Shown: one piece after another, positions 2,805 through 46,395 of the stretch
Layout of the letters: every line of letters begins with the position of its first letter
How positions within the stretch are numbered: the stretch's first letter is position 1
Assembly: GCA_036277095.1 (NCBI GenBank)
Contig: DASUNP010000005.1
Span: 411,775-475,774, forward strand
Length of the DNA stretch: 64,000 nucleotides
Origin: Blastocatellia bacterium
GTDB taxonomy: Bacteria > Acidobacteriota > Blastocatellia > UBA7656
Direction of reading: 5' to 3'
Notes under the pieces: model-generated
Told to the model about the DNA's origin: nothing
Database searches by the model: none
The model's input: the letters and a program-made list of their open reading frames with translations, nothing else
Made by a program: the position numbers and the translations under genes

Positions 2805-4487
2805 ATGGCGGAGATGACCGGCGCAGAAGCGATGTTTGAGATGATGGTGCGCGAGGGCGTGCGCTACGTTTTCGGAAACCCAGGGACGACCGAGCTGCCG
2901 CTGATGGATCTGTTCGCCGCGCGCTCTGAGATCGACTACATCCTGGCGCTTCACGAAGATTCTGCTTTAGGCATGGCCGCAGGCTACGCCGACGCCACGG
3001 GAAGGGCTGCGGTAATCAACCTTCATACGAATCCGGGGCTCGCTCATGCGCTGGGTAATCTATACAACGCCTACCGCGCGGGGACGCCGCTGGTAGTCAC
3101 GGCGGGCCAGCAGGACACTCGCGCGATGATCGAAGAGCCGCTGCTGACGGCAGACATGTTGGAGCTTGCCCGCCAGCACACGAAATGGGTTTGGGAGGCG
3201 CGGCACGCTTCCGAGATACCCGCCGTGATGGCCCGCGCATTCAAGATTGCCGAAACGCCTCCAACTGGTCCGGTGTTCGTATCGCTCCCCGTAGACGTGA
3301 TGGAACAGCGAGCCGACATTACTCTGCCGCCTACAACTCGAATCGGCACGCGCACCCGAGGCGACCGCGCGAGCGTAGAGCGAGCGGCGCAGATCCTGAT
3401 AGAGGCGAAAAACCCCGCGATCATAGCGGGCGACGGCTGCGCGCGGTCAGGCGCCGTAGAGGATGTAGTCAATCTTGCAGAAACGATTGGGGCGCGCGCC
3501 CACAGTGAGCCGTTGAATGCGCTGTTAGATTTTCCGACCGACCACGCGCTGTACGCCGGGCCGATGTTCGCAAACGCCAAGCAGACGAGCGAACAGCTTG
3601 AGGGCGCGGACGTGATAGTCATTATCGGCGCTAACAATCTTGCGCCGCTCGTCTACACCGGCGCGCGAATGATACCTGAAACGGCGCGGCTCATTCAGAT
3701 CAACGCAGACCCGCACGAGCTTGGAAAAAACTACGCGGCCGAAGTCGCGATACTGGCCGACCCGCGCTCGGCAATCGAGGAGCTGATCGAAGCGATTCGC
3801 GCGAAGGCCACCGATCAGGTTACGGAGATGATTGCGCGCCGCCGCGAGATGATCTCGGCTCGAATAAAAGAGGCCCGCGCGCGCTTCAGCGAGCAGGCAG
3901 GGGTCGCTTCCGACGACGCGCCGATGACGCCGGCCTACGTCGCGCGGGTGATGCGCGAGGCGGCAGACCCGAGGGCCGTGCTCGTAGACGAATCGGTGAC
4001 TTCGACGGCCTTCGTGCGCACAGGGTTTACTTTGAGCGAGCCGAACTCTTACTTTTACGCAAAAGGCGGATCGCTCGGCCTCGCGCTTCCGGCCGCCGTG
4101 GGCGTCAAGCTCGCGATGCCCGACCGCCAGGTGATCTGCGCCGTGGGCGACGGGTCGGCGCTCTATTCGATACAGGCGCTGTGGACCGCTGCGCGTTACG
4201 GCCTCGCGGTCAAGTTCGTGGTCTTCAATAACTCAAGTTACATGATCTTGAAAGGCGGGTTACTCGCGATGAAAGGCGCGTCAGTCGCGCGCGGCGTCTT
4301 TGTCGGAATGGACATCACAGAGCCCGAGATAGACTTTGTGCGCCTGGCAAGCTCGATGGGCGTCGGGGCGCGCCGCGTCGCTCGCGCGTCAGAGCTGCGC
4401 GCAGGGTTGGACTGGGCGCTTGGCGAAGCGGGGCCTACGCTCTTAGACGTCAGCATAGCGCGTGAAGTGCGAAGCGTGCTCAGGTAA
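2805..4487 (+). CDS. Thiamine pyrophosphate-dependent enzyme (benzoylformate decarboxylase / acetolactate synthase-like)
   Basis: N-terminal TPP pyrimidine-binding region (VRYVFGNPGTTELPLMD..., LHEDSALGMAAGYA). C-terminal TPP-binding GDGS motif (AVGDGSALYSIQAL...N). Length 560 aa. Confidence 0.75.
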   Translation: MAEMTGAEAMFEMMVREGVRYVFGNPGTTELPLMDLFAARSEIDYILALHEDSALGMAAGYADATGRAAVINLHTNPGLAHALGNLYNAYRAGTPLVVTAGQQDTRAMIEEPLLTADMLELARQHTKWVWEARHASEIPAVMARAFKIAETPPTGPVFVSLPVDVMEQRADITLPPTTRIGTRTRGDRASVERAAQILIEAKNPAIIAGDGCARSGAVEDVVNLAETIGARAHSEPLNALLDFPTDHALYAGPMFANAKQTSEQLEGADVIVIIGANNLAPLVYTGARMIPETARLIQINADPHELGKNYAAEVAILADPRSAIEELIEAIRAKATDQVTEMIARRREMISARIKEARARFSEQAGVASDDAPMTPAYVARVMREAADPRAVLVDESVTSTAFVRTGFTLSEPNSYFYAKGGSLGLALPAAVGVKLAMPDRQVICAVGDGSALYSIQALWTAARYGLAVKFVVFNNSSYMILKGGLLAMKGASVARGVFVGMDITEPEIDFVRLASSMGVGARRVARASELRAGLDWALGEAGPTLLDVSIAREVRSVLR

Positions 4488-4798
4488 CAGAAGACGGCGG
4501 GGATGAAAGCGTTACTCATGATGCTCATAGCGATGCTCATGATAAAAGCGATGCTCATTAATGATGCTTCTTCGCCGCGTAGCGGCGCGATGACTTTAGC
4601 CGTGTGCTTCAGCGCACGGACAACAAGCAGCAACGGATTCCCGTCGCGTCAGCGACGCTTGAATTCAGAGGCTCAGGCGTCGCGTCAGCGACGCGGCGCT
4701 TTTGATTGACGGTTGTCCCGGCGTTGAAACACCGGGCTAAAATCAAACTGCCGCTACGCGGCAGCGATGAATATTCATTGCTAAGAAGGTATTCACGG

Positions 4799-6142
4799 AT
4801 GCTCAAAACTCACCGAAGGTCAACGCTCTTCACCCTATTCTTCATAGCCGTTTTAATCGCGCTGCCCGCGCTGGACCTGTTCAACACACGGGCTGCGCAA
4901 GCTGCGAACGTCAAGGTCGTTTACGCGGGCCGCTTGATCGACGGCACGTCGAACACGGTGCGCACAAACGTTTCAATCATCATCGAAAAAGACCGCATAA
5001 AAGAGGTGCGCGATGGGCGCGCGACCGTCGCAGGAGCTGAAGTCATAGACCTGTCTGACGCGACCGTGATGCCTGGTTTTATCGACTGCCACACTCACAT
5101 GACAACACAGCTCGGGAGCACCTCGTTTCTCGGCGCGCTGACGCGAAGGAATTCCGACACGGCGATACAGGCTACGGTCTACGCGCGGCGGACTCTTATG
5201 GCGGGGTTCACAACCGTCCGTGATGTCGGCGCGCCGAACTTCGTCGATATAAGCCTCAGAGACGCGATCAACGCGGGGACGGTTCCGGGTCCGCGAATGT
5301 TTGTGGCCACTCGCGCCTTGAGCATCACCGGAGGCCACGGCGATGCGGGCGGCTTGCGCGAAGACTTATTGCCCGAGCCCGATTATCGCAACGGAATAAT
5401 CAACAGCCCCGAAGACGGGGTGCGCGCCGTCCGCTACCAGGCTAAGTACGGCGCGGACCACATAAAAATATCGGCCACGGGCGGCGTGCTATCGATAGCC
5501 GATTCCGGTTCGGGCCAGCAGATGACCCTCGAAGAGATGAAGGCAATCGTAGAGACTGCGCGCATGCTTGACCGCAAGGTCGCGGCTCACGCCCACGGGG
5601 CCGAAGGCATGAAGGATGCCCTGCGCGCGGGCGTCTCTTCCATTGAGCACGGCAGTTATATCGACGCGGAAGCGATAGTTCTGTTTAAGAAACACGGCGC
5701 GTATCTTGTGCCTACGATCATCGCGGGAAAGACGGTTGAGAATGCGGCAAAGATACCGGGGTTTTTCCCTCCGGCCATCGAAGCGAAAGCGCGCACGATT
5801 GGCCCGCTCATTCAAAACGCTTTCGGACGAGCCTACAGGGGCGGCGTCAAGATCGCTTTCGGCACAGACGCGGGCGTGGTCGAGCACGGCAAGAACGCTA
5901 AAGAGTTCGAATACATGGTCGAAGCCGGTATGCCGCCAATCGAAGCAATACTGTCGGCCACGCGCTCGGCCGCAGACCTGATAGGTCGCCCGGCAGAGAT
6001 CGGCAGCGTTCAAGCGGGCCGCTACGCCGACATCGTCGCGGTCAAAGGCGACCCGCTGGCCGACATCAAGTTGCTTCAAAATGTCAGCTTCGTGATGAAA
6101 GCCGGGCAGGTCTACAAGAGCGACGGCAAGCCCGTGATGTAG
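4799..6142 (+). CDS. Amidohydrolase family metallo-hydrolase, secreted
   Basis: Internal ATG at 4799 preceded by AAGAAGG. Signal peptide STLFTLFFIAVLIALPA. Metal-binding GFIDCHTHM motif and later HAHG. The ORF-track start at 4706 lies in the structured intergenic region. Confidence 0.7.
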   Translation: MLKTHRRSTLFTLFFIAVLIALPALDLFNTRAAQAANVKVVYAGRLIDGTSNTVRTNVSIIIEKDRIKEVRDGRATVAGAEVIDLSDATVMPGFIDCHTHMTTQLGSTSFLGALTRRNSDTAIQATVYARRTLMAGFTTVRDVGAPNFVDISLRDAINAGTVPGPRMFVATRALSITGGHGDAGGLREDLLPEPDYRNGIINSPEDGVRAVRYQAKYGADHIKISATGGVLSIADSGSGQQMTLEEMKAIVETARMLDRKVAAHAHGAEGMKDALRAGVSSIEHGSYIDAEAIVLFKKHGAYLVPTIIAGKTVENAAKIPGFFPPAIEAKARTIGPLIQNAFGRAYRGGVKIAFGTDAGVVEHGKNAKEFEYMVEAGMPPIEAILSATRSAADLIGRPAEIGSVQAGRYADIVAVKGDPLADIKLLQNVSFVMKAGQVYKSDGKPVM

Positions 6143-26383: not shown

Positions 26384-26421
26384 AGCGCAAAAGTTTAGCT
26401 TGCGCTACTCCGCCTCAGCAA

Positions 26422-26503
26422 GTCCTGAGTGCTGAGTCCTGAGTCCTGAGTGAAGAATTAGAGGCAGTGTTCTTAAGTTTTTTACTCAGCACTCAGCACT
26501 CAT
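26422..26503. repeat. CTGAGTG-family heptamer palindrome (copy 2)
   Basis: gtcctgagtgctgagtcctgagtcctgagtga ...loop... actcagcactcagcactcat. The BshC stop codon lies in the 3' arm. Confidence 0.75.
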
Positions 26504-37664: not shown

Positions 37665-40616
37665 ATGAAGAATCTCCGGTTGTATATCCGCGCTCGCCTG
37701 CGCGCGGGTCTCACCATGCTCGCATTGATTGCGTTGACGATCCCCGCACTGGGACAATCTCAAGCGACCACGGGCGTCATCGAAGGAATAGTCTACGATC
37801 AGAACGGGGCTGTGATCGCGGACGCAAACGTGCGCGTCAAGCAGAAGGAGACGGGGCTTGAGCGGACCAGCCGGACAGATGAGAACGGCAGGTTCCGCGC
37901 GCTGCTGCTCCCGTCCGGCACCTACATTATCGAAGTCGAGAAGCAAGGTTTCGGTCGCCTCGTGCGCGATACCATAGAACTGAGCGTAGGCCAGACGCTG
38001 AACCTCCCGCTCACGCTCCAGCCGGCGGGCGCAAGCGAGGTCGTCACGATCACGGGCGACGCGCCCGTAGTCGAGACTACGCGCTCCGAGCAATCGACGC
38101 TCGTCGACAAGCGCTCGGTCGAAAACCTCCCAATCAACGGGCGGGACTTCGTAGGCTTTATCAAGCTCGCGCCGACAGTCTCGATCGTGCAGGGGCCGGA
38201 CGGGGCTGAGATCACCATCAACGGGCAGAAGGGGATTCAGAACAACATCTCCGTCGACGGAGCGGACGCGAACAACCCGTTTTTCGGCGAGCAGCGCGGC
38301 GGCCAGCGGCCACAGTTCACCATCTCGCTTGAAGCCGTCAAAGAGTTTCAAGTCGTGGCCGACGGCGGCTCGGCTGAGTTCGGCCGGTCATCAGGCGGCT
38401 TTATCAACGTCGTCACCAAATCGGGGACGAACGAATTTCATGGCTCGGCATTCGCCTTCTTCCGCGACGAATCGATCACTTCGGAGAATCCTGACGCGGT
38501 CGACGCGGGATTGCCTACGGACGATTTCCGCCAGTGGCAATTCGGCGGCTCGATTGGCGGCCCGATCAAGCGAGACAATGCCTTCTTCTTTTTCGCCTTC
38601 GACCAGAACGACGGCATAAGCAAGAAGCCCAACCGCATAGACCCGCGCCTGGTCGAGATCTTTGCGACTCGTTTCAACAGCCCCGGCGAAGAAGGGATCA
38701 TCGAGCGCACGAACGACGCGACGGCTCTGCTCGCCAAGCTCGATTGGAATGTCAATGCAAAGAACCTGCTCACGGTCCGTCACAACTACAGCCGGGCCGA
38801 ACAGGTCAACGGCACGTTCGACGTGCCGACCTGGGGCCGCAGCGCGAACGGGCGCGAGACGGACAACTCCAACGCGTTCATCACTCAATTGGTGACGACT
38901 TTTTCGCCGACGCTGCTGAACGAATTTCGATTCCAATATGCTCGTGAAGCCCGCCCGCGCTTTTACGACGGGCCGGACATCGCCGACGTGGCGATAGGCG
39001 GCGTCGATCCTGAGACAGGCGCGGAGACGGCGTTTCGATTCGGGCGGCCATTCTTTCTGCCCGTGCCGGAAGTCGACAAGCGGTGGCAGTTCACCAATAA
39101 CTTCTCCGTCATTCGCGGCTCGCACTCGATCAAGATGGGGTTCGACTACAACCAGACGAATACGAGCCAGACCTTCGTAGGCTTCGGGCGCGGCCGCTAC
39201 ATATTCGCGTCCGTAGAAGCGTTCGAAGCTTATCTCGACGACCCGGCTGATTCCGGCGGGCTGCTTTTGTACTTGCAGTTCGCACCGCTCAACGGGCTTT
39301 CAGTTGAGGAAGCCGGCACGCAGTCGTTCACTCAAAAAGAGCCCGAGTTCTACATTCAAGACAAGTGGCAGCCGAAACCAAATCTCTCGATCAGCTACGG
39401 GCTTCGCTACTACGCGCAGCTTCAAGACCAGCCTATCACGCCTTTGGAACAGCGCCCCTACGCGCAGTTCATAGGCCAGCCGGGATTTCCGTCCGACGGC
39501 ACGATACCGTCTGAGAAGAACGGCTGGCAGCCGCGCTTAGGCATAGCTTGGGACCCGAACAACGACGCGAAGACGGTCTTTCGCGCAAACATAGGCATCT
39601 ACTACGCGCGCGTACCGGGATTGGTGCTCGCCGGGCCGCGCAACACGGATGGCGCGATAGCGTTTAACATATTTACCTGCTGCGCCCTTCCGTTTTTGCC
39701 CACGCCGCCCGCAAACTTGGGGATATTCGAAAACACCGCGAGCTTCGCTCCGTTCAATCCGGGCGTGCGCGTCTTTGCTGAAGACTTCCAGAACCCGCGC
39801 ACCTTGCAGTGGGGCATGTCGGTCGAGCGCGAAGTCGCTAAAGACTTCACGCTCTCTGCCGGATTCAATTATGCGAATACGGTTCACCTCACACGCTTCG
39901 TCAACCGGAACGGGCCGAGCTTCCAGGGCAACTTCGCGCCCGACGGGCGGAGGCTTTTTGACGGCCCGCAGCCGTTTGCCAAACCGGATGGGTCGGGGAT
40001 AGGAGAGCTTGCGACGACCGAGTCCTCGGCGCGCTCGCTTTACCGAGGTTTTGTCTTTACGGCGAACAAGCGCTTCAGCAGTCGCTTCCAGTTCCAGGCC
40101 AACTACGTGTTGAGCTGGGATTACTCGGACGACGACAACGAGCGCGACCCGTTCACGTTCCGTTACGCGGACGTGTTGGACTTCGGCCCCGAGTACTCTT
40201 ATTCGGACCGCGACCAGCGCCACCGCTTCAACGCGTTCGGCGTTTTCCAGTTGCCCGCAGAGATTTCGCTGACGACTATCTTCCAGGCGCGCTCGGCTCA
40301 GCCCGACCAGATACTGCTGGCCGACTTGAACCTGGACGGCATCTTCAACGACCGCCAGTTCGTCAACGGCCAGGACGTCGGTCGCAACACGCTCAGGAAG
40401 AACAACCAGTTTTACTCTTTCGACTTCCGCGTGAGCCGCATATTCAAGGCTGGCGAGAATATTCAGGTTGAGCCATTGATAGAAGTCTTCAACCTGTTCA
40501 ACAACACGAACCAGATTTCGCCCCCGCGACCTCTCCTGCAGAACTTCGACGGCACGGTCCGTTCTGGCTTCGGCGAGCCGCGCCAGGCCCAGCTCGGATT
40601 GAAATTCCGTTTCTAA
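37665..40616 (+). CDS. TonB-dependent receptor with N-terminal carboxypeptidase-regulatory-like domain
   Basis: Signal peptide. CarboxypepD_reg fold region (TGVIEGIVYDQNGAVIADANVRV...NGRFR...LPSGTYII). Plug and beta-barrel, ending in a C-terminal aromatic residue (...LKFRF). Confidence 0.8.
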   Translation: MKNLRLYIRARLRAGLTMLALIALTIPALGQSQATTGVIEGIVYDQNGAVIADANVRVKQKETGLERTSRTDENGRFRALLLPSGTYIIEVEKQGFGRLVRDTIELSVGQTLNLPLTLQPAGASEVVTITGDAPVVETTRSEQSTLVDKRSVENLPINGRDFVGFIKLAPTVSIVQGPDGAEITINGQKGIQNNISVDGADANNPFFGEQRGGQRPQFTISLEAVKEFQVVADGGSAEFGRSSGGFINVVTKSGTNEFHGSAFAFFRDESITSENPDAVDAGLPTDDFRQWQFGGSIGGPIKRDNAFFFFAFDQNDGISKKPNRIDPRLVEIFATRFNSPGEEGIIERTNDATALLAKLDWNVNAKNLLTVRHNYSRAEQVNGTFDVPTWGRSANGRETDNSNAFITQLVTTFSPTLLNEFRFQYAREARPRFYDGPDIADVAIGGVDPETGAETAFRFGRPFFLPVPEVDKRWQFTNNFSVIRGSHSIKMGFDYNQTNTSQTFVGFGRGRYIFASVEAFEAYLDDPADSGGLLLYLQFAPLNGLSVEEAGTQSFTQKEPEFYIQDKWQPKPNLSISYGLRYYAQLQDQPITPLEQRPYAQFIGQPGFPSDGTIPSEKNGWQPRLGIAWDPNNDAKTVFRANIGIYYARVPGLVLAGPRNTDGAIAFNIFTCCALPFLPTPPANLGIFENTASFAPFNPGVRVFAEDFQNPRTLQWGMSVEREVAKDFTLSAGFNYANTVHLTRFVNRNGPSFQGNFAPDGRRLFDGPQPFAKPDGSGIGELATTESSARSLYRGFVFTANKRFSSRFQFQANYVLSWDYSDDDNERDPFTFRYADVLDFGPEYSYSDRDQRHRFNAFGVFQLPAEISLTTIFQARSAQPDQILLADLNLDGIFNDRQFVNGQDVGRNTLRKNNQFYSFDFRVSRIFKAGENIQVEPLIEVFNLFNNTNQISPPRPLLQNFDGTVRSGFGEPRQAQLGLKFRF

Positions 40617-40820: not shown

Positions 40821-41504
40821 GTGATTACCGCCCTTCTAATTACAGTAATCTTTATCGCAGGTTCTGTCTTAGCTTTATACTTCTGGCAGCGAGCCCCGCG
40901 ACAAGGCCGAAGCGATAGAGCACTGCCGCCCCCTCCCGAACACCGTGGCTTATTCGACGCACAACCGGATGAAACCGAGCCCGGCCTTTCGTCTAAAGAA
41001 GAGGCCGACTTAAAACGCGCGCGGCTGATTGAGCGCGCGGCCCGGCGTGATCTCGCCGCGCTCGACGACGCAGGCGGCGATCGCAATCTTTATAACGAAA
41101 TCTTGGATGAATTTGTGCGGCGAGCCGAAACAAGTCATGAAGAGTTACGCGCGCTCGTCACGCACATCTCGGAAAGCAAACAGCTACGCTCAAACGCCCG
41201 TTTGGCGCGGGCGTTGATTGAGCAATTGAAGCACCCGGCCGACCGCCGCGCTATCGCAGATGCGCTGCACGTCTCTGCTTTATCGGATGACGCGGCCGTC
41301 TACGAGCAGGCGGTCGAAAAGTCTGTTGAGATTTGGCAAGCCGGGGAAGCGACAGAGTTAAAGTCAGAAGATCTGCTCGCGCTGATTGAGAGCCAGTACT
41401 GGGTGCTGGCTCCGGAGGCAAGGCGCTCCGGCGCGGGCTTTGCGCTCAGACAGGCTCTTGAACGTTGCCGGCGCCAACTGGCCGGGCGTGCGCGAGCGCT
41501 GTAA
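40821..41504 (+). CDS. Hypothetical membrane-anchored helical protein (one N-terminal TM), upstream of the SPFH gene
   Basis: MITALLITVIFIAGSVLALYFW, then Ala/Arg/Glu-rich helical sequence. No recognised motif. Confidence 0.45.
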   Translation: MITALLITVIFIAGSVLALYFWQRAPRQGRSDRALPPPPEHRGLFDAQPDETEPGLSSKEEADLKRARLIERAARRDLAALDDAGGDRNLYNEILDEFVRRAETSHEELRALVTHISESKQLRSNARLARALIEQLKHPADRRAIADALHVSALSDDAAVYEQAVEKSVEIWQAGEATELKSEDLLALIESQYWVLAPEARRSGAGFALRQALERCRRQLAGRARAL

Positions 41505-41537
41505 CGCGCCTTACAACAAGGAGAATCGAGGATCACC

Positions 41538-43748
41538 ATGATCGAAAAAGATATTATCGCGTTAGCTCCGTACTTGATCGCCGGCTTCATCGGGCTGGTG
41601 ATGCTGATCATTATCTACAAAATCTTCAGCGTCAACGTAGGCCCGACAGAGATCGCAATCAAGGAGCGGCGCTACTTAGGCGCAAAGATGCCGCCGGGCC
41701 GCGTGGTCGCGACCGAAGGCGAGGTCGGCATACAGGCCGACGTGCTCAAGCCCGGCCTCCACATGATCAAGTGGCCGACCGAGCGCGTAGTCCGCAAAGT
41801 GCCTCTGATCGAGATAGGGCCCGACGAGATTGGCATCATCGAAGCCATAGACGGCGAGCCTATGCCTGCGGGAAGGATATTCGCGCCCGACCGCGCTCAA
41901 AACGCGCACAACAATTTCCAGGACCCCATTGCGTTCATCAAGCAGGGCGGCGTTAAGGGCATTCAGCTCCGCACGCTCCCGCCGGGGCTGTGGCCGATTC
42001 ACCCTTACCTGTTCCGCGTCTCTGTAGCAAAGATGACGATCGTCCCGCCTGGCAGAGTAGGCATAGTTACAGCGGCGGACGGCGGGCCGTTGGACGCGGG
42101 CCGCCTTCACGGCAAGGCCATCGACGGTCACCGGAACTTTCAAGACGCGGAGCAGTTCATCGCCTCCGGCGGGCAGAAAGGGCCGCAGGTCGAAATCCTC
42201 ACGCCCGGGACCTATCGCATACTGACGGACTCGGCCCCGATCGAGGGCGGCGCCGAGCGCAAGCCGGGCCTGTTTTTTGTCCGGCTCTACGACGCGACGA
42301 TAATCAACGAGAATAACATCGGGCTGGTCGAAGCTTTAGACGGCGCTCCGCTCGACCCGCGCGATTACGTCGCCGTGCCAATCGAAGGCCACGACAATTT
42401 TCAGGACTGCAACGAGTTCATTCGTCACGGCGGTCAGCGCGGGCCGCAGAAAGACATACTGCTGCCCGGCACATACTACATCAACCCGCTCGTCTTCAAA
42501 GTGATCCCTGAGACCGCAAAGGAGATCAAACCGGGCGAGGTTGCGGTGATCGTGTCAAACGTCGGCAAAGACCCTTCAGAAGAGATACGCCGCGCGATGG
42601 CTGACAAAGTTCGCGAGCGACTTGAGCGCGAAGAGAAGGAGCAGGTCGCAATGTCTGTGGCGCGATTAGACAAGCTCGATACCGAAGATCGCAGCGTCGC
42701 CGAGATTCAAGAAGAGTTGACCCTGGTTGACCCGGCGGACTCGCGGCTGGATGAAGGCGCGCACGAAGCTTACGTTGTGCCCGACGGTTTTCGAGGCATT
42801 CAAGAAACGGTCGTAGGGCCGGGCCGTTACTACGTGAACACCCTGGCCGTAAGCCCGATCGTCATCCCGACTACCAACCAGACGGTCGAGTGGACAGCGG
42901 GCGAGATCGCAAACACGTTCAACCCGTTCGAGGTTATATCGAAAGACGGCTTCACGATGCAGCTCGAAGTCCGCGTGGTCTTCCGCGTCAAGCCCGAAGA
43001 CGCGCCCTTCATGGTCGCGAAGATCGGCTCGATCGATCGGTTGATTCAAAACGTGATGCACCCGCTGATCGATTCCATATTCCGCAACCAGGCGTCGGAA
43101 TCCTCCGCGATGGCTTACTTGCAGAACCGCCACGAAGAGCAGGAACGGGCCGAAGCGCGCGTGCGCGCTCACCTGCTCAAGTATCACGTGGATGTTGTGA
43201 ACGTCTTGATCTGCCACATACACCTGCCCGAAGAGCTGATGAAGACGCAGACGGAAAAGATACTCGCCGAGCAGCGGCAGAACATGTTTAACGCGCAGCG
43301 CGAGGCCGAAGAGAAGCGCATTCAACTCGAAAAGACTCGCGCGCACGCCGACAACCAGAGAGACTTGATGGCGGCAACCGTCGGCGTCGAGATCTCTACC
43401 AAGCGCGCCGAGCAGCGCAAGGCCGAGGGCGAGGGCGAAGCCCATTACATCTCTGCGACGGGCCGCGCCGAGGCCGAAAAAGTTCGCCTGATGGGCGAAG
43501 CGCAGGGCGTGGCTTACGCAGAGCAGGTCAACGCGCTCGGCCCGCAAGGCGTGGCCTTAGTCGAGATACTGAAAGTGATCGGCGAGAAACAAGTTCGCAT
43601 CACGCCTGACGTGATGGCTACGGGCGGCACGGGCGACGGGGCCGGAGGTTTGGGCACGCTGCTCCTGCTGAATCTGTTTCGCGAACGCCTTGGCACAGGT
43701 GCTCAAGCGACTCCGGAGAACGGCTCGCCCGTCCCTGCCAAAAGGTAA
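41538..43748 (+). CDS. SPFH/band-7 (flotillin-like) membrane protein with triplicated ~95-aa insert
   Basis: N-terminal TM. SPFH start (PGLHMIKWP) and SPFH C-terminal part plus flotillin-type EA-rich coiled coil. Between them are three repeats of ...DGxPLxxGR...GHxNFQDxxxFIxxGGxxGPQxxILxPGTYxI(N)P. Confidence 0.65.
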   Translation: MIEKDIIALAPYLIAGFIGLVMLIIIYKIFSVNVGPTEIAIKERRYLGAKMPPGRVVATEGEVGIQADVLKPGLHMIKWPTERVVRKVPLIEIGPDEIGIIEAIDGEPMPAGRIFAPDRAQNAHNNFQDPIAFIKQGGVKGIQLRTLPPGLWPIHPYLFRVSVAKMTIVPPGRVGIVTAADGGPLDAGRLHGKAIDGHRNFQDAEQFIASGGQKGPQVEILTPGTYRILTDSAPIEGGAERKPGLFFVRLYDATIINENNIGLVEALDGAPLDPRDYVAVPIEGHDNFQDCNEFIRHGGQRGPQKDILLPGTYYINPLVFKVIPETAKEIKPGEVAVIVSNVGKDPSEEIRRAMADKVRERLEREEKEQVAMSVARLDKLDTEDRSVAEIQEELTLVDPADSRLDEGAHEAYVVPDGFRGIQETVVGPGRYYVNTLAVSPIVIPTTNQTVEWTAGEIANTFNPFEVISKDGFTMQLEVRVVFRVKPEDAPFMVAKIGSIDRLIQNVMHPLIDSIFRNQASESSAMAYLQNRHEEQERAEARVRAHLLKYHVDVVNVLICHIHLPEELMKTQTEKILAEQRQNMFNAQREAEEKRIQLEKTRAHADNQRDLMAATVGVEISTKRAEQRKAEGEGEAHYISATGRAEAEKVRLMGEAQGVAYAEQVNALGPQGVALVEILKVIGEKQVRITPDVMATGGTGDGAGGLGTLLLLNLFRERLGTGAQATPENGSPVPAKR

Positions 43749-43754
43749 TCAATA

Positions 43755-43850
43755 GTCCTGAGTGCTGAGTCCTGAGTGCTGAGTAAAAACCCTTATCGGG
43801 GCGCTGTCCTTTTTCTTTCACTCAGCACTCAGGACTCAGCACTCAGGACT
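43755..43850. repeat. CTGAGTG-family heptamer palindrome (copy 4)
   Basis: gtcctgagtgctgagtcctgagtgctgagt - A-run...T-run loop - cactcagcactcaggactcagcactcaggact. Lies 7 nt after the SPFH stop. Confidence 0.75.
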
Positions 43851-43899
43851 TCTTCTCGCCTTGTCGGTCAAAACATCCTGCCCTAGAATACCCTGCACA

Positions 43900-44523
43900 A
43901 TGATAATCAATCTTATTCGATCAATTTCAAAAATGGGTCTGGTCGCGTTGGCCCTGATGTTCGTCTGGGCCTGCCCGCCGCCGCCTAACCTGAATTCGAA
44001 TCAGTCGAACGCAAATCAGCCAGGCGCTTCCGCGCCCAGACAGGCGTCTGCTTCAGGCGATGTTAAATTCCAGCCGCCCGCCGCCTGGGTCTCTGAGCCG
44101 TCGTCATCGAGCATGCGCGTTGCGCAGTACCGCCTGCCGCGAGCAGCGGGCGACGGGGAAGACGCATCGCTAATAGTCTATTACTTCGGGCAGGGGCAGG
44201 GCGGCTCGGCGCAGGCGAACCTCGATCGCTGGATAGGCCAGATGGAACAACCCGGCGGCGGCTCTTCGAAAGAGAAGGCCAAGACCGAAAAGATGACCGT
44301 CAACGGGCTCGACGTAACGCTGCTCGATGTCACGGGGACTTACACGGCGGAGATGACTCCGGGCTCGGGCAACCAGCAGAACAAGCCCGGCTCTCGCATG
44401 CGCGCGGCCATGATCGACACGCCGAAGGGCGCGTACTTCGTCAAGCTCGTCGGGCCTGAAAAGACAATCGCCCGCTGGGACGGCGAATACATGTCTTTCA
44501 TAAGATCGTTCGAGTTCAAATGA
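43900..44523 (+). CDS. Hypothetical lipoprotein/secreted protein
   Basis: Hydrophobic leader ending ...LALMFVWAC (possible lipobox Cys). Gly/Ser/Gln-rich. No recognised family. Start is uncertain (43861, 43900 or 43933). Confidence 0.45.
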   Translation: MIINLIRSISKMGLVALALMFVWACPPPPNLNSNQSNANQPGASAPRQASASGDVKFQPPAAWVSEPSSSSMRVAQYRLPRAAGDGEDASLIVYYFGQGQGGSAQANLDRWIGQMEQPGGGSSKEKAKTEKMTVNGLDVTLLDVTGTYTAEMTPGSGNQQNKPGSRMRAAMIDTPKGAYFVKLVGPEKTIARWDGEYMSFIRSFEFK

Positions 44524-44536
44524 CCGGCTAAGGAAG

Positions 44537-44977
44537 ATGATAGAGATTGCGCTCAAGCTATTAGACGAGGGGCTTGCGCTCCCGCGTTACCAGCACGAGG
44601 GCGACGCCGGGTTTGATCTCACGAGCCGCATAGACTTTTGTATAGAGCCGGGCGAGCGCGCGACTGTGCCAACAGGGATAGCCGCGCAGATACCGCGCGG
44701 GTACGCCGGGCTGGTCCTGCCCAGAAGCGGGCTGGCGGCCCGTCACGGAATTGCGCTCGTCAATTCGCCGGGCTTGATCGACTCGGGCTATCGCGGCGAG
44801 ATCGCCGTCGTGCTTATAAACACCGATAAGCGGAACCGGTTCGAAATCAAGCGCGGCGACCGCATCGCTCAGCTCGTAATTCAAAAGATCGAAGAGGCGG
44901 TCATACGCCAGGTGGCGGAACTTGACGAGACTTCGCGCGGCGCGGGCGGCTTCGGAAGCACGGGCACAAAAACATGA
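44537..44977 (+). CDS. dut: dUTP diphosphatase
   Basis: Five dUTPase motifs including AGFDL, RSGLA, GLIDSGYRGE and C-terminal RGAGGFGSTG. Confidence 0.9.
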   Translation: MIEIALKLLDEGLALPRYQHEGDAGFDLTSRIDFCIEPGERATVPTGIAAQIPRGYAGLVLPRSGLAARHGIALVNSPGLIDSGYRGEIAVVLINTDKRNRFEIKRGDRIAQLVIQKIEEAVIRQVAELDETSRGAGGFGSTGTKT

Positions 44978-46395
44978 CCAAACCAAAAAACATGATTAAG
45001 CCGATATTGCTTTTGCCGGTAATGTTGCTCACGGTCTTTGCCGCTTCCGCATTTGCGGCGACGCCCACGATGAGGCTCGACTACTACCACACGGGCAACG
45101 CGACCGAAGAGATGTTCAGCCTCGACCGCGTAGTCATAGAGCCGCTCCCGTGGCCGGGAAACCTGCGCAATGGCGTCGACGCGACCAACCTCGGAAAGTA
45201 CATCTTCGAAATCATCGACCCACAGACGAGCAGCATAATTTATTCGCGCGGCTTCGCATCGATCTACGGCGAGTGGGAGACGACCGACGAGGCGAAGAGC
45301 ATGAACCGCACTTTTCATGAATCGCTCCGCTTCCCCGCGCCCGAACGAATTGTGAAGGTCGTTCTGAAAAAGCGCGACGCGAAGAACGCTTTTCGAGAGA
45401 TATGGACCGTCAATGTTGACCCGAAAGATATTTTTATCGATAACTCAAAGCCCGCGTCTCCGGGTCCGTTGATTGAGATTCAGAAAAGCGGCGACCCTGC
45501 GTCGAAAGTAGATTTCCTGATCTTAGGCGACGGGTACACCCCACGAGAGCGCCAGAAGTTTGAGCGTGACGCGCGCCGCTTGACTGAGATACTCTTTCGG
45601 ACATCGCCTTTCAAAGAGCGCCGCGCCGACTTCAACGTGTGGGGGCTTTGCCCAGCGTCGGCTGAGTCGGGCATCTCTCGGCCCTCGACGGGCGTCTATC
45701 GCCGGTCGCCAATCGGGGCGACTTACGACGCGTTCGGCTCGGAGCGTTACGTACTGACGTTCGACAACCGCGCGTTTCGCGACGTGGCCTCGTTCGCTCC
45801 TTACGAATTCGTAGAGATATTAGTAAACAATCAGACCTACGGCGGCGGAGGAATATTCGGGCTCTACGCGACGGTGGCGGCAGACAGTTTGTGGGCGCCT
45901 TACGTCTTCATACACGAATTCGGCCACCACTTCGCGGGGCTTGCCGACGAGTATTACACGTCAAGCGTGGCTTACGCCGCTCAGACCGAGCGCGTAGAGC
46001 CGTGGGAGGCAAACGCGACGGCTCTGCTCGATCCTAATAATCTGAAGTGGAAAGACCTCGTAGCGCCCGGCACGCCAATACCTACGCCCTGGAATAAAGA
46101 GGCTTTCGAGACTTATTCGCGCGAGATTCAAAAGCGCCGCCGCGAGATAAGAGCGGCCCGGCGACCCGAGCGCGACATGGACGCGCTGTTTACGGAAGAG
46201 AAAGAGCACGAGAGCCGAATGCTCGCTGCCGATAAATATGCGGGGAAGGTCGGCGCGTTTGAAGGGGCGATCTACGAGGCGCGGGGATACTTTCGCCCGC
46301 AGGTAGATTGCATAATGTTCACGCGCAACGACGTGCCTTTTTGCGCCGTCTGTCGCCGCACGATAGAGCGCGTCATCGATCTCTACACGCGCTGA
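44974..46395 (+). CDS. M64 family (IgA-peptidase-like) zinc metallopeptidase, secreted
   Basis: Signal peptide and HEFGHHFAGLADEY zinc motif. Start overlaps the dut stop (ATGA). Confidence 0.75.
   Translation: MTKPKNMIKPILLLPVMLLTVFAASAFAATPTMRLDYYHTGNATEEMFSLDRVVIEPLPWPGNLRNGVDATNLGKYIFEIIDPQTSSIIYSRGFASIYGEWETTDEAKSMNRTFHESLRFPAPERIVKVVLKKRDAKNAFREIWTVNVDPKDIFIDNSKPASPGPLIEIQKSGDPASKVDFLILGDGYTPRERQKFERDARRLTEILFRTSPFKERRADFNVWGLCPASAESGISRPSTGVYRRSPIGATYDAFGSERYVLTFDNRAFRDVASFAPYEFVEILVNNQTYGGGGIFGLYATVAADSLWAPYVFIHEFGHHFAGLADEYYTSSVAYAAQTERVEPWEANATALLDPNNLKWKDLVAPGTPIPTPWNKEAFETYSREIQKRRREIRAARRPERDMDALFTEEKEHESRMLAADKYAGKVGAFEGAIYEARGYFRPQVDCIMFTRNDVPFCAVCRRTIERVIDLYTR

Follow-up and report, generated by a model that had tools for sequence, protein, structure and literature searches.

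Genes and modules of the SPFH protein

This study concerns a group of genes in the genome of a Blastocatellia bacterium (assembly GCA_036277095.1, contig DASUNP010000005.1), of which the 64,000-nucleotide (nt) stretch from position 411,775 to 475,774 of the forward strand was analysed. The whole stretch is called the window below, and positions are counted from its first nucleotide. A sequence-only reading of the window had drawn attention to three open reading frames (ORFs), taken to be a cassette of a helical membrane protein, a flotillin with its SPFH domain split by a triplicated module, and a lipoprotein. All three ORFs were confirmed. The middle one encodes a protein of 736 amino acids (aa) which belongs to a large bacterial SPFH family, and the repeat domain and the layout of this family are without a database name. 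The elements of the region are as follows.

40821-41504, + strand: upstream partner gene, an ORF of 227 aa with one N-terminal transmembrane (TM) helix, an Arg-rich flank and a helical domain; orphan family
41538-43748, + strand: SPFH protein gene, an ORF of 736 aa with a Band_7 match
43754-43850, no strand assigned: inverted repeat with 35-nt arms and a 27-nt spacer, 97% complementary, directly 3' of the SPFH stop codon
43861-44523, + strand: lipoprotein-like ORF of 220 aa, its N-terminus lipoprotein-like as read from the sequence

The 736-aa protein is a member of the SPFH/Band 7 superfamily, with a Band_7 score above the gathering score, the SPFH alpha/beta fold, an N-terminal anchor and a C-terminal helical region. 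The Pfam scan of the whole protein, in which matches at E <= 0.1 were listed, gave a single Band_7 (PF01145) match at aa 419-591, which spans profile positions 15-170 of 176 and scores 88 bits against a cut-off of 23.6. The only other match was a sub-threshold one to Not1. No Flot model was matched at that threshold, contrary to the flotillin assignment of the sequence-only reading, and NCBIfam gave no match to the protein. Because Band_7 matches one stretch located after the repeats, the SPFH domain is, as judged from the sequence, intact and downstream of the repeats and not, as had been proposed, split by them. The parts of the protein are listed below, where "model" denotes the AlphaFold prediction.

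41562-41624, + strand: N-terminal TM helix (aa 9-29), a hydrophobic stretch; helix at aa 5-30 in the model, with a predicted local distance difference test (pLDDT) score of about 90
41628-41807, + strand: module 0 (aa 31-90), a beta module without NFQD insert; half-match to the repeat hidden Markov model (HMM); five strands, 3-7-7-3-7
41808-42035, + strand: NFQD module 1 (aa 91-166), by HMM (E 5.8e-31), BLASTP and model
42033-42293, + strand: NFQD module 2 (aa 166-252), with a 13-aa insert before the last strand, by HMM (E 3.4e-31), BLASTP and model
42294-42518, + strand: NFQD module 3 (aa 253-327), by HMM (E 1.7e-33), BLASTP and model
42519-42578, + strand: first two strands of module 4 (aa 328-347; strands aa 328-330 and 334-340), with a weak HMM match at aa 330-348
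42579-42764, + strand: charged helical insert of about 60 aa (aa 348-409; helices aa 348-380, 387-395 and 399-405)
42765-43223, + strand: last three strands of module 4 and the SPFH alpha/beta core (aa 410-562)
43230-43586, + strand: long C-terminal helices (aa 565-683; helices aa 565-637, 643-667 and 669-683)
43650-43688, + strand: hydrophobic C-terminal helix (aa 705-717, GTLLLLNLF), from the model, with low pLDDT

Self-BLAST of the entire protein returned the identity match only, and the repeat units, at aa 88-166, 164-252 and 250-326, were then compared pairwise. This gave BLASTP E-values of 1.2e-15, 1.0e-14 and 2.2e-21 at 40-52% identity, and the motifs DG.P, H.NFQD, FI..GG..G.Q and L.PG are common to all three units. 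The presence of three related repeats was thus borne out, while their length was smaller than the approximately 95 aa first estimated, namely 75 aa, or 87 aa in the second unit owing to its 13-aa insert. A repeat HMM, built on 491 repeat instances taken from other proteins, recognised all three units with the E-values listed above. The best-conserved parts of the module are the NFQD and GG.xG.Q loops. When the repeat region and single repeats were compared with Pfam at E <= 10, no model matching the repeat was found, in agreement with the initial view that the repeat is not an annotated Pfam domain.

The same HMM gave three half-unit matches outside the three units. The second half of the profile matches aa 56-78 (E 4.5e-6) and aa 410-438 (E 1.9e-7), the latter being the start of the Band_7 match, and the first half (profile positions 4-22) matches aa 330-348 weakly. 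Since the HMM also matches aa 56-78 and aa 410-438, the sequence comparison supports the earlier suggestion that the N-terminal strand element of the SPFH domain gave rise to the repeats. The part of the protein before the repeats had been described as a normal SPFH start. It does resemble one, and gives a weak Band_7 match to profile positions 14-40, but aa 31-90 are an extra NFQD-less copy of the module, module 0, and not a detached half of the SPFH domain. The SPFH domain's own first strand element is found at aa 328-347, and the Band_7 match downstream is without profile positions 1-14. The protein thus has five modules in series: module 0 without insert, modules 1-3 with NFQD, and module 4, which is the SPFH domain's own N-terminal element. 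The charged insert at aa 348-409 occupies the loop position of module 4 that holds the NFQD insert in modules 1-3; in Geomonas-type and cyanobacterial relatives this loop is, as read from their sequences, much shorter. Among 121 orthologues, the region of aa 565-683, which corresponds to the coiled-coil or cap-helix segment, is densely invariant, and L709, L710, L713 and F714 of the hydrophobic C-terminal helix are invariant.

The structure of the protein was predicted by AlphaFold from a 56-sequence alignment with distant relatives (50%-cluster representatives), which gave a mean pLDDT of 84 and values mostly above 90 for aa 10-600. In the model all five modules have one topology with the identical strand pattern 3-7-[insert]-7-3-7 residues, and a short helix lies within the insert of modules 1-3. 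The modules are followed by the SPFH alpha/beta core and then by the long helices. Foldseek against the PDB identified major vault protein (MVP) as the closest structural match: the top 11 matches were all MVP (E 2e-14 to 1.5e-11, about 800 alignment columns), and the MVP R1-R7 fragment 3gf5 was matched with an E-value of 3.6e-6. Prohibitin, erlin, stomatin, HflK/C and flotillin ranked after MVP, and QmcA was also among the structural matches. As modelled, the protein has the repeat array, shoulder and cap-helix architecture and the fold of MVP.

By sequence, the repeats show no detectable relation to MVP. The Pfam Vault models (PF01505, PF17794, PF17795 and PF17796) and MVP_shoulder (PF11978) did not match the repeat region at E <= 10, and none was found on the whole protein at E <= 0.1 or in ten diverse relatives. 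The MVPs listed for comparison, on the other hand, all carry PF01505, PF17794 and PF11978, and the full set of five models is present in all but one. With hhalign and a vertebrate-only, low-diversity MVP profile, the SPFH core alone was aligned to the MVP shoulder (82 columns, 74% probability, E 2.8e-5). The 736-aa protein is built like MVP, but stands outside the MVP family as defined by sequence.

Spread and layout of the family

In total, 2933 homologues of the 736-aa protein were found. The best 120 share 82-97% identity with it and, where named, come from Blastocatellia, Pyrinomonadaceae or Acidobacteriota. An HMM search with the repeat, proposed with the first reading, was carried out using a three-unit profile against 1.84 billion cluster representatives (50% identity clusters) and showed that the layout is widespread: 1330 proteins were matched at E <= 1e-3, 147 of them at E <= 1e-30, with 1-15 matched stretches each. 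The repeats precede the SPFH-plus-helix region wherever this is retained, and follow the N-terminal hydrophobic helix where one is present. The named members belong to several phyla. Those of cyanobacteria (Symploca, Iningainema, Okeania) reach 1802 aa with 13-15 repeats, and a Geomonas member has 837 aa and 6-7 repeats. Members on plasmids or chromids were found in Rhizobium (48 records), Streptomyces (16), Clostridium (10), Ralstonia (6), Clostridioides, Novosphingobium and Paraburkholderia. Cultivable genera with members of the family include Rhizobium (for example WP_025418874.1), Clostridium (C. butyricum, WP_003431566.1), Streptomyces (S. clavuligerus), Ralstonia and Geomonas.

The labels on the family members are all generic: SPFH, flotillin family, YqiK, HflC or VWA domain-containing. 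This applies also to the JGI "YqiK" and the PGAP "flotillin family protein" labels on relatives. Some relatives carry extra C-terminal domains, namely vWA (P0121, cyanobacterial, 13-15 repeats), STAND/AAA ATPase (P0197 and P0200) or PP2C phosphatase (P0222). Matches to CshA repeats and to the ATP-synthase barrel-sandwich in the long cyanobacterial members were sums of sub-threshold stretches and were rejected as noise.

The orientation of the proteins in the membrane was approached through the charges flanking the TM helix. Lysine and arginine were richer on the C-terminal than on the N-terminal flank in 55 of the 65 TM-bearing members, with means of 2.17 and 0.28, respectively. This bias and the ATPase and phosphatase fusions in relatives point to a cytoplasmic location for the bulk of the family proteins.

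Two of the plasmid copies have conspicuous neighbours. On the Streptomyces clavuligerus plasmid NZ_CP065235.1 (locus L083, 2447-6449) the family member directly follows two TIR-domain genes in an operon-like arrangement, which hints at an immunity-type context in that lineage; PADLOC returned generic TIR matches only for this locus. On the conjugative Ralstonia insidiosa plasmid CP093305.1 (locus L082) the family member is located just downstream of PRTRC system genes, and four separate places on that plasmid match the repeat region.

The upstream partner and the neighbourhood

The gene context was examined in 80 related loci from genomes of Blastocatellia or Pyrinomonadaceae, whose SPFH genes are 80-96% identical. 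The 227-aa gene lies directly 5' of the SPFH gene in 77 loci and the other three are cut by the contig end, so it was present in 77 of the 77 testable loci. In 74 of 76 measured loci the gap between the two genes is -16 to 177 nt. The lipoprotein gene, on the other hand, follows the SPFH gene in 2 of the 80 loci. A conserved downstream partner was sought across the 80 loci and no general one was found; a GntR-ABC transporter cluster follows in approximately 20 of them. Of the three-gene order first proposed, only the upstream half has therefore held. As the upstream gene is co-conserved, while the lipoprotein gene occurs in so few loci and is separated from the SPFH gene by the hairpin, the cassette consists of two genes and is lineage-specific (Blastocatellia only).

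The 227-aa protein has a single TM helix at aa 2-22, followed by the Arg-rich flank and the helical domain, and the motifs kept in its family include RGLF, LHVAALSDDA and EYW.L..EARRSGAGF. It is 100% identical to a hypothetical protein of a Blastocatellia metagenome-assembled genome, and none of its 39 homologues has a name. Nothing significant was found in Pfam, NCBIfam, PHROGs or, by profile search, the PDB. No NfeD match was obtained, so its description as a helical one-TM protein different from the usual NfeD partner was correct. Its sole PADLOC match was a marginal one to AbiEi (E 9e-4), and PADLOC and PHROGs gave marginal or generic matches only for the cassette as a whole. Outside the two closest relatives the identity is 26-46% for the 227-aa protein and 80-87% for the SPFH gene; at the sequence level, the upstream partner gene evolves much faster than the SPFH gene. 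At two loci (L045, 3453-5857, and L076, approximately 3504-5869) the two cassette genes enclose an NfeD-like gene (PF01957, E 2e-6, just below the cut-off) and a canonical Band_7/flotillin-like gene of 583 aa. Both nested genes encode distinct proteins and have no copy in the window.

The inverted repeat at 43754-43850 is likely to be either a transcript end or a dispersed palindromic element, and it forms the 3' boundary of the cassette. The palindrome is made up of the heptamers CTGAGTG/CTGAGTC, and a second, shorter copy is found 17 kb upstream at 26421-26502, where none would be expected by chance (0 of 100 shuffles). The 220-aa ORF beyond it, first described as a lipoprotein of an unlisted family, matched no family in Pfam or NCBIfam; its lipoprotein-like N-terminus is read from sequence. 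Further 3' lie a dUTPase gene and an M64 (IgA peptidase-like) peptidase gene, which share a 4-nt overlap (44537-46395, + strand), and then, on the opposite strand, a dCTP deaminase gene (PF22769; 46402-48123, - strand) split by an intein (PF14890, Intein_splicing, aa 141-501 of the 573-aa product). The dUTPase and the intein-bearing dCTP deaminase are thus near neighbours on opposite strands. Upstream of the cassette, 37665-40616 (+ strand) encodes an outer-membrane protein of 983 aa that combines a CarboxypepD_reg domain, a TonB Plug and an OMP beta-barrel; this gene has the same position in the closest relatives only.

Interpretation and comparison with known systems

We consider it reasonably probable that the 736-aa protein is a TM-anchored SPFH scaffold with a tandemly amplified N-terminal beta element, in which stacked modules lengthen the wall of a cage. 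In such a scheme the N-terminal beta element of the SPFH domain would have been amplified in tandem, and the protein would oligomerise side by side into a closed ring, as in HflK/C, flotillin, stomatin, prohibitin, erlin and QmcA. The TM helices would anchor this ring and the C-terminal helices would form its roof. Stacked end to end, the four extra modules would add length to the wall, in the way that the MVP repeats do in the vault barrel, and the outcome would be a taller enclosed space above a membrane patch, on the cytoplasmic face. The upstream one-TM protein would probably be a lineage-specific client or adaptor of the assembly.

Several observations weigh against this interpretation. 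The repeat profile gave no match to PDB sequences at E <= 10 and a probability of 0.4% when aligned by hhalign to the MVP profile used above. As the repeats are without sequence similarity to MVP repeats or any PDB sequence, the MVP-like plan may be convergent. An initial AlphaFold run on an alignment of 121 orthologues, all at least 82% identical, reached a pLDDT of 51 and was discarded. Global TM-scores to MVP are low, at about 0.2, since long rods cannot be superposed as rigid bodies, and the long helices may contribute part of the Foldseek score to MVP. Cage formation would follow by analogy with the solved SPFH complexes. The TM flanks of the 736-aa protein taken alone are uninformative for orientation, with one lysine or arginine on each side. 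Finally, the 227-aa partner was absent beside the Geomonas-type relative and the Rhizobium, Clostridium, Ralstonia and Streptomyces copies at the loci inspected, and since it is absent beside the Geomonas-type, Rhizobium and Clostridium copies, it cannot be a general component of the SPFH-repeat family.

An extension of the scaffold reading, to which we attach a good deal less confidence, is that the proteins form tall half-vault-like barrels on the cytoplasmic face of the membrane, their height set by the number of NFQD modules (1-15), with the vault plan either shared or reinvented. If true, such half-vault barrels would connect the SPFH cages of membranes with the vault as a free particle.

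Among the other explanations, the one that survives best is compatible with a cage: the modules could serve mainly as binding or sensing surfaces, with the protein acting as a membrane platform for stress or anti-invader signalling. The vWA, STAND/AAA ATPase and PP2C domains of relatives, the TIR-domain and PRTRC neighbours of the Streptomyces clavuligerus and Ralstonia copies, and the high conservation of the NFQD and GG.xG.Q loops would fit this role. However, the 736-aa protein has no effector fusion, the PADLOC matches of the cassette are marginal, to unrelated models (E about 1e-3), PADLOC gave no specific match for the relatives with fusions, the copies in Rhizobium and Clostridium are solitary genes in a housekeeping neighbourhood, and no match suggests a ligand. 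We regard this reading as unlikely.

Somewhat less probable still is an arrangement in which the protein faces the periplasm, either as an HflK/C-type membrane protease regulator or with the beta modules as adhesin-like spacers. It draws on the structural matches to HflK/C and QmcA, on the JGI label "regulator of protease activity HflC" on some relatives, and on the summed sub-threshold CshA adhesin repeat matches in the long cyanobacterial members. HflK and HflC, however, are paired paralogues linked to FtsH, while the SPFH gene studied here is single, with no paralogue or ftsH among its conserved neighbours. The bulk of HflK/C is periplasmic, whereas the charge bias in the NFQD family indicates a cytoplasmic bulk.

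The initial view, a flotillin with its SPFH domain interrupted by a foreign repeat module and encoded in a three-gene cassette with the helical protein and the lipoprotein, is largely refuted, and we give it very little weight. The resemblance of module 0 to an SPFH start with its weak Band_7 match, and the three closely spaced genes on one strand, made it attractive. Against it, Band_7 is one intact stretch after the repeats with its missing first strand at aa 330-347, the repeats are copies of the SPFH element itself and not foreign, no Flot model is among the Pfam matches, and the lipoprotein gene, present in 2 of 80 loci, lies beyond the 35-nt-arm hairpin. Least credible of all is a true MVP orthologue, acquired or inherited, that forms free cytosolic vault particles: MVP is the best full-length Foldseek match and bacterial MVP homologues are on record (PMC3595041, PMC3762200, bioRxiv 10.1101/872010), but the protein begins with a TM helix and falls outside the sequence-defined MVP family.

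MVP repeats are shorter, about 55 aa, whereas the module of the 736-aa protein has about 75 aa with an NFQD helix insert. The repeats of the 736-aa protein have no detectable sequence similarity to those of MVP (PDB 4V60, 9R86, 3GF5). MVP has 9 repeats (PMC13100048), compared with five modules in the 736-aa protein and 1-15 across the family. MVP is also soluble, its N-termini joining the half-shells; in the 736-aa protein the N-terminal TM helix stands where the MVP halves join.

The canonical SPFH cage proteins, HflK/C (7VHP, 7WI3), QmcA (8Z5G), flotillin (9BQ2, 9L3G), stomatin, prohibitin and erlin, have a single N-terminal beta element, while the 736-aa protein has five. It differs from them also in that the window contains no NfeD partner for it, and it has neither a paralogue pair nor a Flot match. 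With respect to flotillin (reggie/FloT/YqiK) in particular, neither the Flot nor the NCBIfam flotillin models were matched, and an operon partner of the NfeD type (YqiJ/YuaF) was not found. A 2009 survey of prokaryotic SPFH subfamilies gives, in the passages retrieved by a term search, no sign of repeat amplification (PMC2636767).

The repeat-shoulder-tail layout has been noted in prokaryotes before. In ECOD-based work the N-terminal element of archaeal SPFH proteins is classed as "MVP repeat" (PMC13607799), and Asgard MVP homologues with five repeats were found to be MVP-like by reciprocal structure matches (PMC12962969). These proteins share the layout with the NFQD family, and their N-terminal SPFH element is regarded as having the MVP-repeat fold. 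The archaeal "MVP repeat + SPFH" proteins, however, have one repeat and 317-396 aa (PMC13607799), and the NFQD family differs from both groups in being bacterial and TM-anchored, with its own repeat type in 1-15 copies. The bacterial MVP homologues on record (Moorea/Lyngbya F4Y3B4, Saprospira H6L4P8 and others; PMC3595041, PMC3762200, bioRxiv 10.1101/872010) likewise have MVP-like repeats and a band-7-type shoulder. They were recovered in BLAST searches with MVP as the query, at about 25-54% identity, and Pfam or InterPro annotates some of them as MVP, whereas the NFQD family is invisible to MVP sequence searches. Herpetosiphon A9AUD4 is also listed among them, under the name "band 7 protein". 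A literature search, with most subscription journals outside its reach, yielded no account of a bacterial SPFH family that combines a TM anchor with a tandem array of such modules in variable number, in line with the first impression that this architecture is undescribed. As regards annotation, the labels "SPFH", "flotillin", "YqiK", "HflC" and "VWA domain-containing" hide, in many proteins, a common repeat domain that has gone unrecognised and merits a model of its own.

In a 2026 paper on the vault, the MVP domains are called unique to the vault and vaults are contrasted with membrane-anchored SPFH proteins (PMC13100048). According to the same paper, vaults stand apart from every other SPFH protein in that repeats take the place of a membrane motif. 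The NFQD family has both, a TM anchor and 1-15 modules matching the MVP repeat fold ahead of the SPFH core. Because it combines these two features, is large and occurs in cultivable genera, it makes two questions testable in bacteria, namely how the wall height of an SPFH cage is set and where the building plan of the vault came from.

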